Assembly (NCBI GenBank): GCA_947427285.1
Contig: CANEHE010000005.1
Span: 26,156-90,155, forward strand
Direction: 5' to 3'
From: an uncultured Porphyromonadaceae bacterium
GTDB taxonomy: Bacteria; Bacteroidota; Bacteroidia; Bacteroidales; Muribaculaceae
DNA: 64,000 bases
Shown here: positions 12,401-47,356 of the stretch, piece by piece
Layout: every line of letters starts with the position of its first letter
Position numbering within the stretch: the stretch's first letter is position 1
The notes under the pieces: model-generated
Seen by the model: the letters and a program-made list of their open reading frames with translations, nothing else
What the model was told of the DNA's origin: nothing
Database searches by the model: none
Position numbers and translations under genes: made by a program

Positions 12401-13126
12401 TCACTTATCCATTCTCTGACGCAATAAATCAATTTTTCTGCTGATCAAAGGCAATGTCATTTCAAGACGATGCACCTCCCTTCTGGCCTCGGCCAACTGC
12501 CACGTACGTGAAACCACAGCAACATCCGCGGCAGATACCGGAACCACAATCACTTTTCCTGACTGTCCGGAATATGTGACAGTAAACCGATCGGGGCCAC
12601 CTGAAGCCAACAGCATCCCTATCGAGTCGGCCTCGGCACCTGTAAACAGTACTGTGGTAAGGTTGCCTGACCTATAATTAAGGGCTTGATCATGGGGGAC
12701 AACGGCAGAACGGACCGAACGACTCCCGTCAGAAACCGATATGTTTGAGAATGTATTTCCCGACAGCACCGCAACAAGTTCAAACCCCTCCGACTTGGAG
12801 ATACGCGCAGTCAGGCCAGTACGCGACAGCGGATAGGATTTTTTGGCCGATTTAAGTATCATGTACCCCTCCACTTCACGAGGGTTCTCGGAATAAGCAA
12901 AATCCTTAAGAAGAGAATCTACGGTATTATAGGCATTTGTCAGTGAATCTTCGGCAAGAGTCCTTCTTTTTTCCAAAACTGCCACCGAATCGGCAAGACT
13001 TGCTTTCCAATTTTCATATTTATCTGCGTTACGGCTTCGTTCCTGCCTCTGCACACACGAGGTCATCGCCATCGTCATTATCGCGACGATACCCAGCATT
13101 CTGTATGTCTTCATATCTTTTGTCAA
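12401..13126 (-). CDS. Hypothetical lipoprotein
   Basis: Lipobox MTSC, coiled-coil N- and C-termini; overlaps relA stop by 4 nt. Confidence 0.7.
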   Translation of the reverse strand: MTKDMKTYRMLGIVAIMTMAMTSCVQRQERSRNADKYENWKASLADSVAVLEKRRTLAEDSLTNAYNTVDSLLKDFAYSENPREVEGYMILKSAKKSYPLSRTGLTARISKSEGFELVAVLSGNTFSNISVSDGSRSVRSAVVPHDQALNYRSGNLTTVLFTGAEADSIGMLLASGGPDRFTVTYSGQSGKVIVVPVSAADVAVVSRTWQLAEARREVHRLEMTLPLISRKIDLLRQRMDK

Positions 13127-15315
13127 TTTCGTGTTACATCCTTCACGCCTTTTACTGTCCGTAGTTTCCGTAGAAGAGATGACAGACGTCCGGTATCTGT
13201 AAGATTTATCGTCAGAAATCCCTGGAATACACCATCATCTGAATCAATGGATATGTTGCGCAGACTCATATCCGGCTCCTTGGCTATGATTGAGGTAATG
13301 TTGGTGACAATGCCTATATCATCGTGTCCCACTACTTTCAGCGTCACAGGCATCTGCACACCGGAAGATCCACTCCATTCCACAGCCACGATACGATAGG
13401 GATAACGCTGACGGATATTCGGTGCATTCGGACAATTTTTCTGATGCACCCTTATCACGCCTTCGGAACTTATGAAACCGAACACGTCATCGCCAAACAA
13501 TGGGGAGCAGCATTTTGCCATCTGGTATCTCAACCCCTTGATTGTCTTGCCTCCCACAGCCAGAATCTCAGCAGGGGATTCCTCTTCTAACTCCCGTAAG
13601 TGAAACTCACCGGCAGAGACCGTCGGTACCTCTTCGTCCGGAGCGGATTCCGCCTCAAAATCAGCGAAAACTTTTCCGGCATCAAGTTTCTCATCAGCAA
13701 GGTCCGCGAAAAAGTCATTGGTAGACTTGTAGCCGAGTTTTTTGATGAACCGCATCAACGTCGGTTCGTCAAGATCGATCTTCCGGTTTTTCGCACGCCG
13801 CTCCATCAGCTCCCTTCCAAGTTCGGCGCGCCGGAGTTTCTGTTCGTTAAGCGACTGGCGAATCTTATTACGGGCCTTGGTGGTAGTCGCGATTGCAAGC
13901 CAGTCCTGTGTCGGCGTCTGGTTCGCGGAAGTTATGATCTCAACAGTATCACCGTTGGCAATCCGATGGTTGATACGGCGGTGCGCTCCGTAAATTATGG
14001 CACCGGTACATCTGCAACCCACATTGCTGTGGACAGCAAACGCAAAATCAAGCACAGTGGCCCCGGTCGACAGTCTGAGAAGGTCCCCCTTCGGAGTAAA
14101 CGCAAAGACCTCCTTGAGGGCACTCCCCGGCTTCACATCTCTCATCAATTGCATGGGACCGGAATCAGCACTTTCAAGGATGTCGCGTATATTGTTCATC
14201 CACTGGTCCGTACTGTCTCCTTTCACTCCCTTGTAACGCCAATGCGCAGCCAAACCTTTTTCGGCCACAAGGTCCATTCGCCGTGTGCGGAACTGCACCT
14301 CCACCCATTTGGAATCAGGGCCCATCACTGTGGCATGAAGACTTTCATATCCGTTGCTCTTCGGAATGGTGATCCAGTCCTTCATACGTGCCGGATTGGC
14401 TGTGTACATATCAGCAAGAATGGAATAGGCGAGCCAGCAATCCCGTTTCTCCCGTTCAAGAGGTGTATCAATAATCACCCGTATGGCAAAAAGATCGTAT
14501 ATATGCTGGAGATCAACCTTCTGCTTTTTTATCTTGGCCCAGATGGAAGATATGGACTTTGTACGTCCTTTGATGGAAAATTTGAGTCCCGCCGCAGTCA
14601 GTTTCTCTTTTACAGGAGCGATAAATGCCGCGATATATGCTTCGCGCGCCCGTTTGGTCTCATTGAGTTTTCTGGCAATCTGCGTATATATCTCACGGTT
14701 TGTGTATTTGAGGGCAAGATCCTCCAGTTCACTCTTGAGCTGATAAAGTCCAAGACGATGGGCAAGCTGCGCATACAGGCAGTCGGCCTCAAAAGCCACA
14801 TTGCGTACCCACACGTCATCAGGATGCCGGTTGATAGCCCTCATCAACACCAGATGGTACACGATCATGACTATGATAACCCGTATGTCGTCTGCCAGAG
14901 AAAGGAGAAGCCCCCGGAAATTCTCTTGATTGGTTATTTCTGTCTTCGATCCGAAGCGCATCACTTCTCTCATACCGTGTACAATGGAAACGATATCCTC
15001 TCCCCACATCTTCTTCATCCGATCAATAGACTCTGGCATCAGATGGCATATAGGAAAAATAAGTATGGCCGCGAGTATATTATGGTCCGGCTCCACACTT
15101 TCCGCAAACAGACGTGCCGTGCGGACACTCATCAATATAAACGGAAGTCCATGTGGGTCACGAATAGGAATACCTTCGGACATACCATGCCGGAAGTCCT
15201 CTAACCATGAGATCTCTTCCGCCGAAAACCGGCTGCCGGCAATCTCCTTTATCTCTCCGATAAGTCGTGAGATCTCCCTGAGTTCCGCAAAAATAAGAGG
15301 CTGTTTAATAATCAT
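13123..15315 (-). CDS. relA: RelA/SpoT family (p)ppGpp synthetase with degenerate hydrolase domain; start codon supplied by MITE end
   Basis: GRTKSISSI, DLFAIRV, NGYESLH, EVQFRT motifs, TGS and ACT domains; HD motif absent (AAILIF); first codons MIIKQP lie in the element TIR. Confidence 0.92.
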   Translation of the reverse strand: MIIKQPLIFAELREISRLIGEIKEIAGSRFSAEEISWLEDFRHGMSEGIPIRDPHGLPFILMSVRTARLFAESVEPDHNILAAILIFPICHLMPESIDRMKKMWGEDIVSIVHGMREVMRFGSKTEITNQENFRGLLLSLADDIRVIIVMIVYHLVLMRAINRHPDDVWVRNVAFEADCLYAQLAHRLGLYQLKSELEDLALKYTNREIYTQIARKLNETKRAREAYIAAFIAPVKEKLTAAGLKFSIKGRTKSISSIWAKIKKQKVDLQHIYDLFAIRVIIDTPLEREKRDCWLAYSILADMYTANPARMKDWITIPKSNGYESLHATVMGPDSKWVEVQFRTRRMDLVAEKGLAAHWRYKGVKGDSTDQWMNNIRDILESADSGPMQLMRDVKPGSALKEVFAFTPKGDLLRLSTGATVLDFAFAVHSNVGCRCTGAIIYGAHRRINHRIANGDTVEIITSANQTPTQDWLAIATTTKARNKIRQSLNEQKLRRAELGRELMERRAKNRKIDLDEPTLMRFIKKLGYKSTNDFFADLADEKLDAGKVFADFEAESAPDEEVPTVSAGEFHLRELEEESPAEILAVGGKTIKGLRYQMAKCCSPLFGDDVFGFISSEGVIRVHQKNCPNAPNIRQRYPYRIVAVEWSGSSGVQMPVTLKVVGHDDIGIVTNITSIIAKEPDMSLRNISIDSDDGVFQGFLTINLTDTGRLSSLLRKLRTVKGVKDVTRN

Positions 15316-15608
15316 TGTTAAACACAAGGTGGTGTATTTTCTGTTAAGTCACAATTTATGAGGAGGGAGCATAGCGGCCTGCGGGTGACCGACGAGTAAA
15401 TGCGAATTAACTGGAAAGACACCATTAATGAACTGATTTTAATTCTTTGTTAAAGAGGTTTTATAACAATGCTTACGCCTTTTACGAAATATTTGAGCGG
15501 CTTTATCCCTTTGGCTCAGCCACATAGCCCGCTATGCTCCTTCGTCGCAGGTACAAATCCATCTCAAATCTTTCGGCCTTGTGTTAACAAGCATTATTAA
15601 ACAGCCTC
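15297..15608. mobile_element. 312-bp composite MITE inserted in relA codons 5-6
   Basis: ~32-bp imperfect TIRs GAGGCTGTTTAATAAT...ATTATTAAACAGCCTC, TAA duplicated at 15294-96 and 15609-11, core cacatagcccgctatgctcctt (15521-42) identical to 47269-90, inverted partial core at 15366-77. Confidence 0.88.
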
Positions 15609-15624
15609 TAAGTTTGTCTTCCAT
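15532..15624 (-). other. Displaced native relA start forming a 30-aa uORF (MEDKL + MITE sequence)
   Basis: ATG GAA GAC AAA CTT A precedes the element; removing element plus one TAA gives in-frame MEDKLIFAEL. Confidence 0.8.
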
Positions 15625-15643
15625 TGATGTCGCATAAAGGATA

Positions 15644-16243
15644 TCACGGGATTCCGAGAAAACGGTGAAGTTGAACCGAAAGTGTCCAGCGTGGATCGGC
15701 AAGCACGCGTCTGATGGTGCGCATGCGGTTGGCACGGCATACTTCCTCATCAGCCACATAACATGGCTGCAGATACATGAATGTGTCAGTGAGACGACAT
15801 GGGAGGGAGAAATATGGCTCCAGATCCTGACCGAGATCCACAACCTTGATCTCATCGGCTCTTTCCGCACGCAAAGGGAGCGCAGCGACTCCGTCGATTC
15901 CTAACTTGGGACTCACTGTCACCCAGTCGGCAGCCTCCGGCACCGGGAAAGTGCCATTGGTCTCTATCGCCACTTTCTTTCCTGTGGCGCGGCGAAGCAT
16001 CCGGACAAACTCATTGTCAATATGCATGCATGGCTCTCCCCCGGTCAATACGATCCAGCCGGCCGTATAAAGATTGACAGCCCTGATGATGTCATCATCA
16101 CTCATGAATATCCCCTCCTCATGACTGGTGTCGCAAAACGGACATGTAAGGTTGCAACCTGAGAAACGCACGAATACAGACGGAAAACCTGTATGATGCC
16201 CCTCTCCCTGAAGAGAATAGAAAATCTCGTTGACTTTACGCAT
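15644..16243 (-). CDS. queE: 7-carboxy-7-deazaguanine synthase (radical SAM)
   Basis: EIFYSLQGEG, CNLTCPFCDT, TGGEP, VTVSPK motifs. Confidence 0.93.
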   Translation of the reverse strand: MRKVNEIFYSLQGEGHHTGFPSVFVRFSGCNLTCPFCDTSHEEGIFMSDDDIIRAVNLYTAGWIVLTGGEPCMHIDNEFVRMLRRATGKKVAIETNGTFPVPEAADWVTVSPKLGIDGVAALPLRAERADEIKVVDLGQDLEPYFSLPCRLTDTFMYLQPCYVADEEVCRANRMRTIRRVLADPRWTLSVQLHRFLGIP

Positions 16244-17785: not shown

Positions 17786-17933
17786 AATAACAAAAATCTT
17801 TTAAAGCCGGAGAAGTCCTGAAAAACAGATCCTTAATCCGGAAATACGACAAAACACGCGCCGAGCTGCCACCATCGTCGCGTAACTGCGGAAACATCTG
17901 TCATGGGGGTTCCGCGTTTTCCCTGCAAAATTA
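17786..17933 (-). promoter_or_regulatory. que operon promoter (TAATTTTG 17926-33) and ~135-nt structured leader
   Basis: -7 box plus mutually exclusive stems seen by eye. Confidence 0.5.
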
Positions 17934-47172: not shown

Positions 47173-47356
47173 GAGGCTGTCTAAAAATGACTGTTAATTT
47201 GAGCTGCTGAACCAAAATATTGTTAAACCGTCCGGCTCTCTTACGCTAAAATCCATCGGCGGCGCAGTCACATAGCCCGCTATGCTCCTTTGCCTTGAAC
47301 GAATTTTATCTGTAAGACAGCCGCCTCAAATTTAACATTGATTTTTAAACAGCCTC
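47173..47356. mobile_element. 184-bp MITE inserted at the rubrerythrin stop codon
   Basis: ~32-bp TIRs GAGGCTGT.TAAAAAT...ATTTTTAAACAGCCTC, TAA duplicated at 47170-72 and 47357-59, core cacatagcccgctatgctcctt. Confidence 0.88.

Follow-up and report, generated by a model that had tools for sequence, protein, structure and literature searches.

Correia/NEMIS elements of Neisseria are co-transcribed MITEs (miniature inverted-repeat transposable elements) whose long terminal inverted repeats (TIRs) pair into mRNA hairpins and alter the expression of downstream genes; they duplicate TA, create promoters and are substrates of RNase III, and they are not known to donate start codons. In erm-type leaders and other instances of translational coupling, a ribosome on an upstream open reading frame (ORF) melts the helix in which a downstream start is held. 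Bacteroidota lack Shine-Dalgarno-led initiation and are unusually sensitive to mRNA structure. Three-base TWA/TNA duplications are made by transposons of the IS5 family (IS1031/ISL2-type) or by PIF/Harbinger-like transposons. In this study, a MITE was analyzed that interrupts the stringent-response gene relA in a 64,000-nt stretch of DNA, hereafter the window, from an uncultured Porphyromonadaceae bacterium that belongs to a mouse-gut species of the Muribaculaceae (assembly GCA_947427285.1, contig CANEHE010000005.1, positions 26,156 to 90,155). The element separates the native start of relA from the bulk of the gene, and an ATG within its relA-proximal TIR reads in frame into the latter.

The co-transcribed MITE hairpin, here a prediction, is what the relA locus has in common with Correia/NEMIS elements, which differ in their TA duplication, their promoters and the lack of a donated start. 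Erm-type leaders are short and evolved and include a sensing step (drug- or amino-acid-dependent stalling), whereas the pairing strands at relA lie 262 nt apart, consist of transposon ends and have no evident sensing step. IS5-family and PIF/Harbinger-like transposons resemble the relA element in the 3-bp TWA duplication and in short TIRs starting with GAG; they differ in that no transposase partner was found for the relA element in the draft assembly, and they are named here as candidate superfamilies only. In Neisseria, REP2 has been described as a small dispersed repeat that contributes its own ATG to the start of chromosomal ORFs at many loci (Delihas 2011, PMC3184786). However, REP2 has neither TIRs nor known transposition, brings a promoter and a ribosome-binding site and lies upstream of genes (PMC3184786), whereas the relA element is a transposon with TIRs and target-site duplications that has proven empty sites, contains no conserved promoter box and leaves the native start stranded upstream. 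Fusions of repeats to the 5' ends of ORFs, which are tolerated since the reading frame survives, comprise pneumococcal BOX/RUP/SPRITE, betaproteobacterial BRE, enterobacterial and Anabaena MITE fusions and in-frame Rickettsia palindromic elements (PMC3184786). In contrast to these mostly annotation-level fusions or internal in-frame insertions, the start codon described here lies in the TIR itself, is found in a single orientation and frame, and is accompanied by filled and empty alleles of three genes in one species. The text of a large MITE census covering Bacteroidota contains neither 'start codon' nor 'coding region' (PMC11602168).

Our preferred and reasonably probable reading of the locus, based on sequence comparison, is that a MITE struck codons 5/6 of relA, that the ATG of its TIR rescues the gene, that relA output is probably lower than before, and that coupling to the stranded upstream ORF (uORF) is a by-product.

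A MITE insertion in codons 5 and 6 of relA

Coordinates are given in window numbering, and relA, queE and the element are read on the minus strand (Table 1). The native start region ATG GAA GAC AAA CTT (15624-15610) begins 19 nt after the queE stop codon (15644-15646) and is followed by an A (15609) and then by the element. Read on the relA strand (15608-15297), the element has the 5' end GAGGCTGTTTAATAATGCTTGTTAACACAAGG and the 3' end CCTTGTGTTTAACAATGATTATTAAACAGCCTC, after which the sequence continues with TTA and TTTTTGCGGAACTC; the relA-proximal duplication copy provides the last two bases of a Leu codon and the first base of an Ile codon. Its TIRs of 33 nt match over 16 perfect base pairs, are then interrupted by a 2-nt mismatch and continue for 7 more base pairs, and the side carrying the outward ATG has the same sense orientation as relA. 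The longest ORFs within the element do not exceed 43 aa, and it contains no transposase gene.

Table 1. Features of the interrupted relA locus in window coordinates
Feature	Position	Strand	Basis or remark
Non-autonomous TIR element (MITE), 312 bp	15297..15608	-	boundaries, TIRs, length, multi-copy family, empty site of allele L061
Right TIR (relA-proximal)	15297..15329	-	holds new start ATG 15315-15313
Left TIR (queE-proximal), masking arm	15576..15608	-	pairs with new start region in predicted RNA fold
Target-site duplication, relA-proximal copy	15294..15296	.	TAA on plus strand, TTA on relA strand
Target-site duplication, queE-proximal copy	15609..15611	.	TAA on plus strand
Stranded native relA start (ATG 15624) with 30-codon ORF (MEDKLRGCLIMLVNTRPKDLRWICTCDEGA plus stop), now upstream ORF	15532..15624	-	ends with TAG 15534-15532
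Current relA coding sequence, 730 aa plus stop	13123..15315	-	ORF, Pfam, protein matches
queE, upstream neighbour, last gene of queF-queC-queD-queE cluster	15644..16243	-	Pfam Radical_SAM, synteny

Of the hallmarks of a MITE, TIRs, a 3-bp duplication, dispersed small copies and filled versus empty sites were observed. A chance inverted repeat does not account for the element, since 12 full-length relatives and many fragments are present in the same genome, nor does an assembly artefact, because at least three independent assemblies contain both junctions. A scan of positions 14800-16000 against Rfam at E<=1 returned no match, and identity with a known RNA or intron was ruled out on this basis. 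Together with the hallmarks of a DNA transposon, this result gives no support to removal of the element at the RNA level, which the first-pass annotation of the window had considered.

The genome comprises 2.38 Mb in 69 contigs (named C2, C4, C13 and so on) and contains 12 full-length copies of the element, which are 304-312 bp long and 79-90% identical. In addition, one 136-bp deletion derivative, one truncated copy and many fragments, several of them at contig ends, were found. The termini are common to all of the 13 aligned copies, and TTA/TAA (TWA) flanks nearly all of them, the exceptions being a one-base mismatch at C11, a degenerate right end at C8:5601 and an imperfect duplication at the truncated copy on C24. 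Of 150 other Muribaculaceae genomes, 10 contain related TWA-flanked elements of about 320 bp (66-82% identity); the sampled genomes of the same genus yielded none, and the family therefore appears to have expanded in this species. Searches with the terminus and with PF01609 recovered no transposase with matching ends from the draft assembly, and drafts often lose insertion sequence copies. A DDE_Tnp_1 transposase was rejected as autonomous partner, being unrelated and without matching ends.

Empty counterparts of the insertion were identified in the same species. A protein cluster at 90% identity contained RelA forms of 730 aa starting with MIIKQPLIFAEL (P0001 on four contigs and P0121, the window allele, on seven) and conspecific, uninterrupted forms of 728 aa starting with MEDKLVFAELREI (P0122-P0125); the DNA of one empty allele (L061) reads ATGGAAGACAAACTTGTTTTTGCGG. 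The filled allele was found with both junctions in the window genome, in L062 (ERZ14499239) and in L065 (GCA_949477065.1), and three more contigs are broken within the element, as commonly happens at repeats; it originates from several samples and at least three data sets. RelA of the sister species (82% identity) likewise comprises 728 aa and starts with MKDKLTISELREA, and the nearest GTDB species keeps the queC-queD-queE-relA synteny without the insert. The first-pass annotation had described a MITE in codons 5-6 of relA with its TAA copies, the 30-codon uORF, the ATG at 15315, a next Met about 45 codons downstream and an AGC opposite the new ATG, all of which hold, and its prediction of a MEDKL-type start in element-free relatives agrees with both the conspecific and the sister-species proteins. 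Neither MIIKQP nor the downstream Met forms the N-terminus of any orthologue that lacks the element.

In all four empty alleles the sequence is CTT GTT (LVF), with TTG (Val6) in place of the TTA target (Ile6) of the filled lineage. Moreover, empty and filled relA differ by 94 synonymous and 9-12 non-synonymous changes, corresponding to about 5% divergence. Owing to the TTG site and this divergence, the empty alleles are regarded as a separate lineage and not as revertants. Within the filled lineage, two sub-lineages are separated by 16 single-nucleotide polymorphisms (SNPs) in 8.2 kb, five in relA, two in the element and nine in the flanks (about 0.2% divergence), so that the insertion has persisted through some strain diversification.

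The start codon in the terminal inverted repeat

An outward-reading ATG is present in the right TIR of each of the 12 full-length copies, within the sequence ...AACA ATG ATT wTT AAA CAr CCT C. At relA, the right TIR reads ATG ATT ATT AAA CAG CCT C|TT A.., and the resulting frame opens a protein whose N-terminus is MIIKQPL-IFAELREI... instead of MEDKL-IFAELREI...; the next in-frame Met is codon 45. Among 130 homologues, the tail ahead of the conserved L-x-F-x-ELR is hypervariable both in its length and in its sequence, and this exchange should therefore be harmless to the protein. The Pfam domains HD_4, RelA_SpoT, TGS, RelA_AH_RIS and ACT_4 all scored over their cut-offs in the window RelA. Its hydrolase motif HDxxED is degenerate, with AILIFPI at that place, and a second long RelA/SpoT homologue (RSH) at C4:17511-19577 keeps LHDVVEDT with an intact HDVVED motif. 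Based on these motifs, the interrupted gene is classified as a RelA-type long RSH, a predicted monofunctional (p)ppGpp synthetase, and a SpoT-type enzyme remains in the genome.

Among 28 ATG-bearing ends in the genome, seven open into ORFs of 176-983 aa, all starting with MIFKQPL or MIIKQPL. In two of these seven (C61 and C11), which are open by chance, the element was inserted directly upstream of a native Met that is still intact. At C13:28264-28572, codon 8/9 of a gene for a sulfatase-family membrane protein is interrupted by a full element; the upstream flank ATG CGG CTC ATA CCC GAT ACT CTTA| leaves the native ORF MRLIPDTL stranded, and conspecific empty alleles (P0156/7, P0161; L106/L107) start with MRLIPDTLRNETWFF and have a clean TTA site. 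The filled C13 gene is present on at least nine contigs. Furthermore, a truncated copy at C24:11520-11733 lies in codon 4/5 of a gene for a 220-aa secreted protein, in the same phase as at relA; an empty allele (L105) was found here as well, and the left duplication is short by one base.

In the C13 subfamily, the same frame is open within the interior of the element. In the filled C13 alleles P0151, P0155 and P0160, the called ORF runs 36 codons further into the element (MVSFPLIRIYSS...LRLT-MIFKQPL), yielding models of 625 aa; in the relA copy, a 2-bp indel puts the equivalent ORF (15425-15318) out of frame.

TIR remnants of 41 nt (C20:3242-3282) and about 22 nt (C23:10824-10848) provide the sole in-frame ATG ahead of the signal peptides of a leucine-rich repeat protein and a lipoprotein, respectively, and the conspecific N-termini are 4-5 codons shorter. 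The conspecific counterparts of these two loci (L067, L068) are 12 nt shorter and still have ATGA(T) in common, and the C20 counterpart also has an upstream stretch like the subterminal region of the element. Neither simple insertion nor simple deletion accounts for the DNA alignments of the two pairs, and the orthologues of the sister species are too diverged to reveal the polarity.

Empty sites were rebuilt in silico for 14 copies. Three copies sit on TAA stop codons (C4:95524-95832, C43:12536-12845 and C21:2278-2413), where the genes are unharmed because the duplication regenerates the stop; three to four lie a few bases 5' of starts, among them C8:128-437 and C8:52787-53094 at 3-15 nt upstream of start codons, and the others are located in intergenic DNA. 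Well inside coding sequence, the element was found at relA, C13 and C24 only. All three insertions have the one of six combinations of orientation and phase in which the TIR ATG reads into the gene (about 0.5% by chance), empty-site alleles were found for all three, and the genome census revealed no full-length copy deep in coding sequence in any other configuration. Survivorship would produce such a bias if the ATG is functional and insertions in other configurations are eliminated, and the pattern argues for the TIR ATG serving as a start codon. Judged from these comparisons, the element family carries a portable start codon, and two more genes are predicted to start at TIR remnants. The rescue of relA by the TIR ATG, proposed in the first-pass annotation, thereby gains strong indirect support: the same ATG heads the C13 and C24 genes, with their stranded starts and empty sites, as well as the C20 and C23 genes. 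An ancient, designed ATG was rejected as an explanation, since the related elements in other Muribaculaceae genera are mostly devoid of it; for the same reason, the TIR ATG is regarded as a lineage-specific variant.

Probable translation of the interrupted relA and competing explanations

In order to rate start codons, a position-weight score of the start context was built from 1147 long ORFs of this genome. The new ATG at 15315 has an A at -3 and ranked at the 56th percentile of genome starts, exceeding the 95th percentile of random ATGs; for the native ATG of relA, the rank was the 35th percentile, and for Met45 it was the 6th. Initiation in Bacteroidota is known to depend on an A at -3 and on weak structure (PMC6847099, PMC3155529), and in Prevotella a structure of -5.2 kcal/mol already cut output fivefold (PMC3155529).

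Folding of the queE-to-relA RNA predicted that the TIRs form a 17+14-bp stem closing the whole element (minimum free energy -120.8 kcal/mol, z = -4.25). The new ATG falls at the TIR mismatch, where the opposite arm would read AGC. For positions -18 to +16 around this ATG, the predicted opening cost was 24.3 kcal/mol, compared with 6-10 kcal/mol for neighbouring starts and 7.8 kcal/mol for the empty allele, and it was predicted to drop to 6.5 kcal/mol when the 33-nt upstream arm was held single-stranded. At C13, the corresponding prediction was 30.7 kcal/mol, falling to 8.2 kcal/mol with the 5' arm open; the truncated C24 copy and the C20 and C23 remnants are unmasked (9-10 kcal/mol). By prediction, the start is sequestered by a helix whose other strand falls in the upstream ORF, and the masking geometry put forward in the first-pass annotation was reproduced in the fold and in the opening energies. 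Because the upstream arm lies wholly inside the stranded ORF at both relA and C13, ribosomes coming from the old ATG would open the stem, and the idea that uORF translation unmasks the hairpin is physically plausible.

Regarding transcription, the minus strand between 15250 and 18000 contains only two TAnnTTTG boxes. The one at 17933, ahead of queF, has a TTTG 23 nt upstream and is the sole complete -7/-33 promoter-like box upstream of relA. The other, TATTTTTG at 15295-15288, arises from the duplication together with relA codons; it is situated downstream of the new ATG and is not accompanied by a -33 TTTG. On neither strand is a TAnnTTTG box conserved within the copies of the element. A promoter within the element was rejected for lack of a conserved Bacteroidota -7 box, a sigma-70 scan being inapplicable to Bacteroidota. 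Since the element has no conserved box and the only full one lies at 17933, relA is most likely co-transcribed with queF-queC-queD-queE as the last cistron of a transcript that is read through the element.

Based on these results, the following course of events is proposed. In one lineage of this Muribaculaceae species, a MITE with a 3-bp TWA duplication inserted itself into relA at codons 5/6. The frame of its TIR ATG stays open to the element end and, given the right orientation and a TWA at codon positions 2-3-1, reads into the host gene, so that the product of the 15315 start would carry the N-terminal peptide MIIKQPLIFAELR. On the que-relA polycistronic RNA, the TIR stem would bury this start and hold output below the native level, Bacteroidota ribosomes being very structure-sensitive at starts. 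Ribosomes starting at the native ATG would plough through the upstream arm and briefly free the new start, and residual relA translation probably depends on them. Such coupling would be an automatic result of the insertion geometry and would need no evolved regulator; over time, insertions of this kind may shed the masking arm, as the truncated and remnant cases suggest. The insertion, its empty alleles, the open frame, the family-wide ATG and its recurrence at further genes are established from sequence; that RelA is still made from ATG 15315 is our inference, and relA of the window most likely represents a rescued and probably weakened allele.

Several findings weigh against this reading, and most of them favour the principal alternative, namely that relA is completely or nearly knocked out in the filled lineage, with the stem blocking the ATG, the ORF intact only as the insertion is recent, and the SpoT-type paralogue, still making and degrading (p)ppGpp, covering for the loss. 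We regard this as a tentative alternative, clearly less probable than a rescued gene yet the best of its rivals. A barrier of 24 kcal/mol, set against the 6-10 kcal/mol of normal starts and the fivefold effect of a far weaker structure in Prevotella, could mean that relA is almost silent. The intact ORF proves little at a divergence of about 0.2% among filled strains, loss of relA may be tolerated because a SpoT-type paralogue with HDVVED exists, and the survivorship argument draws on three loci and two remnants of ambiguous polarity. Furthermore, the window RelA carries three derived amino-acid changes, two of which, D436Y and A411T, are unique among 130 homologues and could mark loss of constraint. 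The former places a Tyr in the TGS domain (window 13999-14001 region; Y442 of the 730-aa form, D436Y when counted from Leu7), at a position occupied by Asn in 111 and by Asp in 18 of the 129 other homologues; Asp is retained in the filled allele P0001.

On the other side, a useless ATG would not be expected to show three of three deep insertions in the rescuing orientation and frame, the sulfatase-family C13 gene has been kept on its contigs with the same masked layout, the genes at TIR remnants need that very ATG for their signal peptides, and the filled relA allele recurs across samples and data sets. The substitution pattern was examined as well: the ratio of non-synonymous to synonymous changes in relA of the window lineage (3:2) differs from that between lineages (9:94; Fisher p=0.009). 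However, a ratio of 4:4 was observed in the flanking genes at an equally shallow divergence, and relaxed selection on relA was rejected as evidence of decay. Since the neighbours have the same ratio, there is no relA-specific decay signal and no excess of non-synonymous changes in relA over its neighbours.

A bolder version of the rescue model treats the MITE family as a mobile start-codon cassette that would turn a native start into a uORF and place the gene under a TIR-stem lock opened only by uORF translation, so that relA synthesis would be tied to ribosome traffic on the leader. In our judgement this version is unlikely. Still more doubtful is the notion, raised in the first-pass annotation as a transposon-built translational control, that the stem and the stranded ORF were selected, with relA output tuned by translation of the 30-codon uORF as a new input to (p)ppGpp synthesis. 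In its favour, the uORF spans the whole masking arm, whose opening accounts for the predicted fall from 24.3 to 6.5 kcal/mol, and the C13 gene has the same layout. However, the ATG is family-wide and any in-frame insertion produces this layout automatically, without selection; the uORF peptide and its stop vary between copies (30 and 23 codons), and most related elements of other genera lack the ATG. The truncated and remnant cases have no masking arm, which points to selection against the arm; because these older cases have lost it, the stem is better regarded as a cost than as a device.

A reversible switch, also envisaged in the first-pass annotation, would require precise excision at some frequency, restoring native relA and creating a mixed population of ON and altered cells. 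Filled and empty alleles do coexist in the species, and a deletion derivative on C21 that is 99-100% identical to the relA copy indicates recent activity. However, precise excision would leave CTT ATT, and none of the four empty alleles is such a revertant (MEDKLIF); these alleles belong to separate lineages as described above, and the assembly offers no transposase with matching ends, which makes a switch highly improbable. The pre-insertion or revertant haplotype ...CTTATTTTTGCGG... had no exact match in the genome and metagenome contig collections, a scan that is uninformative because the control pattern of both alleles was absent too, indicating that the collections do not contain the species. 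Finally, translation of an N-terminally truncated RelA from Met45, the next in-frame ATG, perhaps by way of the TAnnTTTG match at the junction of element and duplication, has hardly any probability, since that box has no -33 TTTG partner, the context of Met45 scores poorly, residues 8-44 are conserved among close relatives and the gene callers in all assemblies picked the TIR ATG.

The matched filled and empty alleles of three genes in one species constitute a natural experiment on tolerated transposon hits in important genes of bacteria and allow measurement of the effect of a TIR-borne start and a 300-nt structured leader in Bacteroidota. The odd N-termini MIFKQPL and MIIKQPL called in metagenome-assembled genomes of Muribaculaceae are explained and can serve as markers of transposon-derived starts. 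If coupling to the stranded ORF holds true, new translational control can arise in one step, and if the family acts as a start-codon cassette, a transposon-made translational feedback on (p)ppGpp would exist as a natural polymorphism in a gut commensal. Even without coupling, the filled strains are probable relA hypomorphs, which bears on stringent-response phenotypes and gut persistence in an abundant mouse-gut family.

Further elements with related termini

The derivative at C21:2278-2413 is a TTA-flanked, 136-bp internal-deletion product (positions 1-77 plus 249-312) that, at one SNP, carries the same base as the relA element of GCA_949477065.1. Its near identity to the relA copy suggests very recent mobility of this subfamily.

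A second element in the window (47173-47356, corresponding to C5:73328-73511) is 184 bp long and has similar termini, a TWA duplication and a different core, of which a 30-nt stretch is in common with the relA element. Genome-wide, the terminus GAGGCTGTTTAAwAAT following TWA occurs about 120 times and likewise delimits other short elements (20-330 bp) whose cores differ. Among these are tiny TTA/TAA-flanked hairpins of 20-46 bp that consist of nearly nothing but two such termini and are scattered over the genome, for example at C2:103684-103729, C8:34122-34154, C27:10204-10236, C30:2562-2594, C43:3737-3769 and C4:123335-123354. These hairpins could be minimal MITEs, products of internal deletion, excision footprints or terminator-like hairpins.

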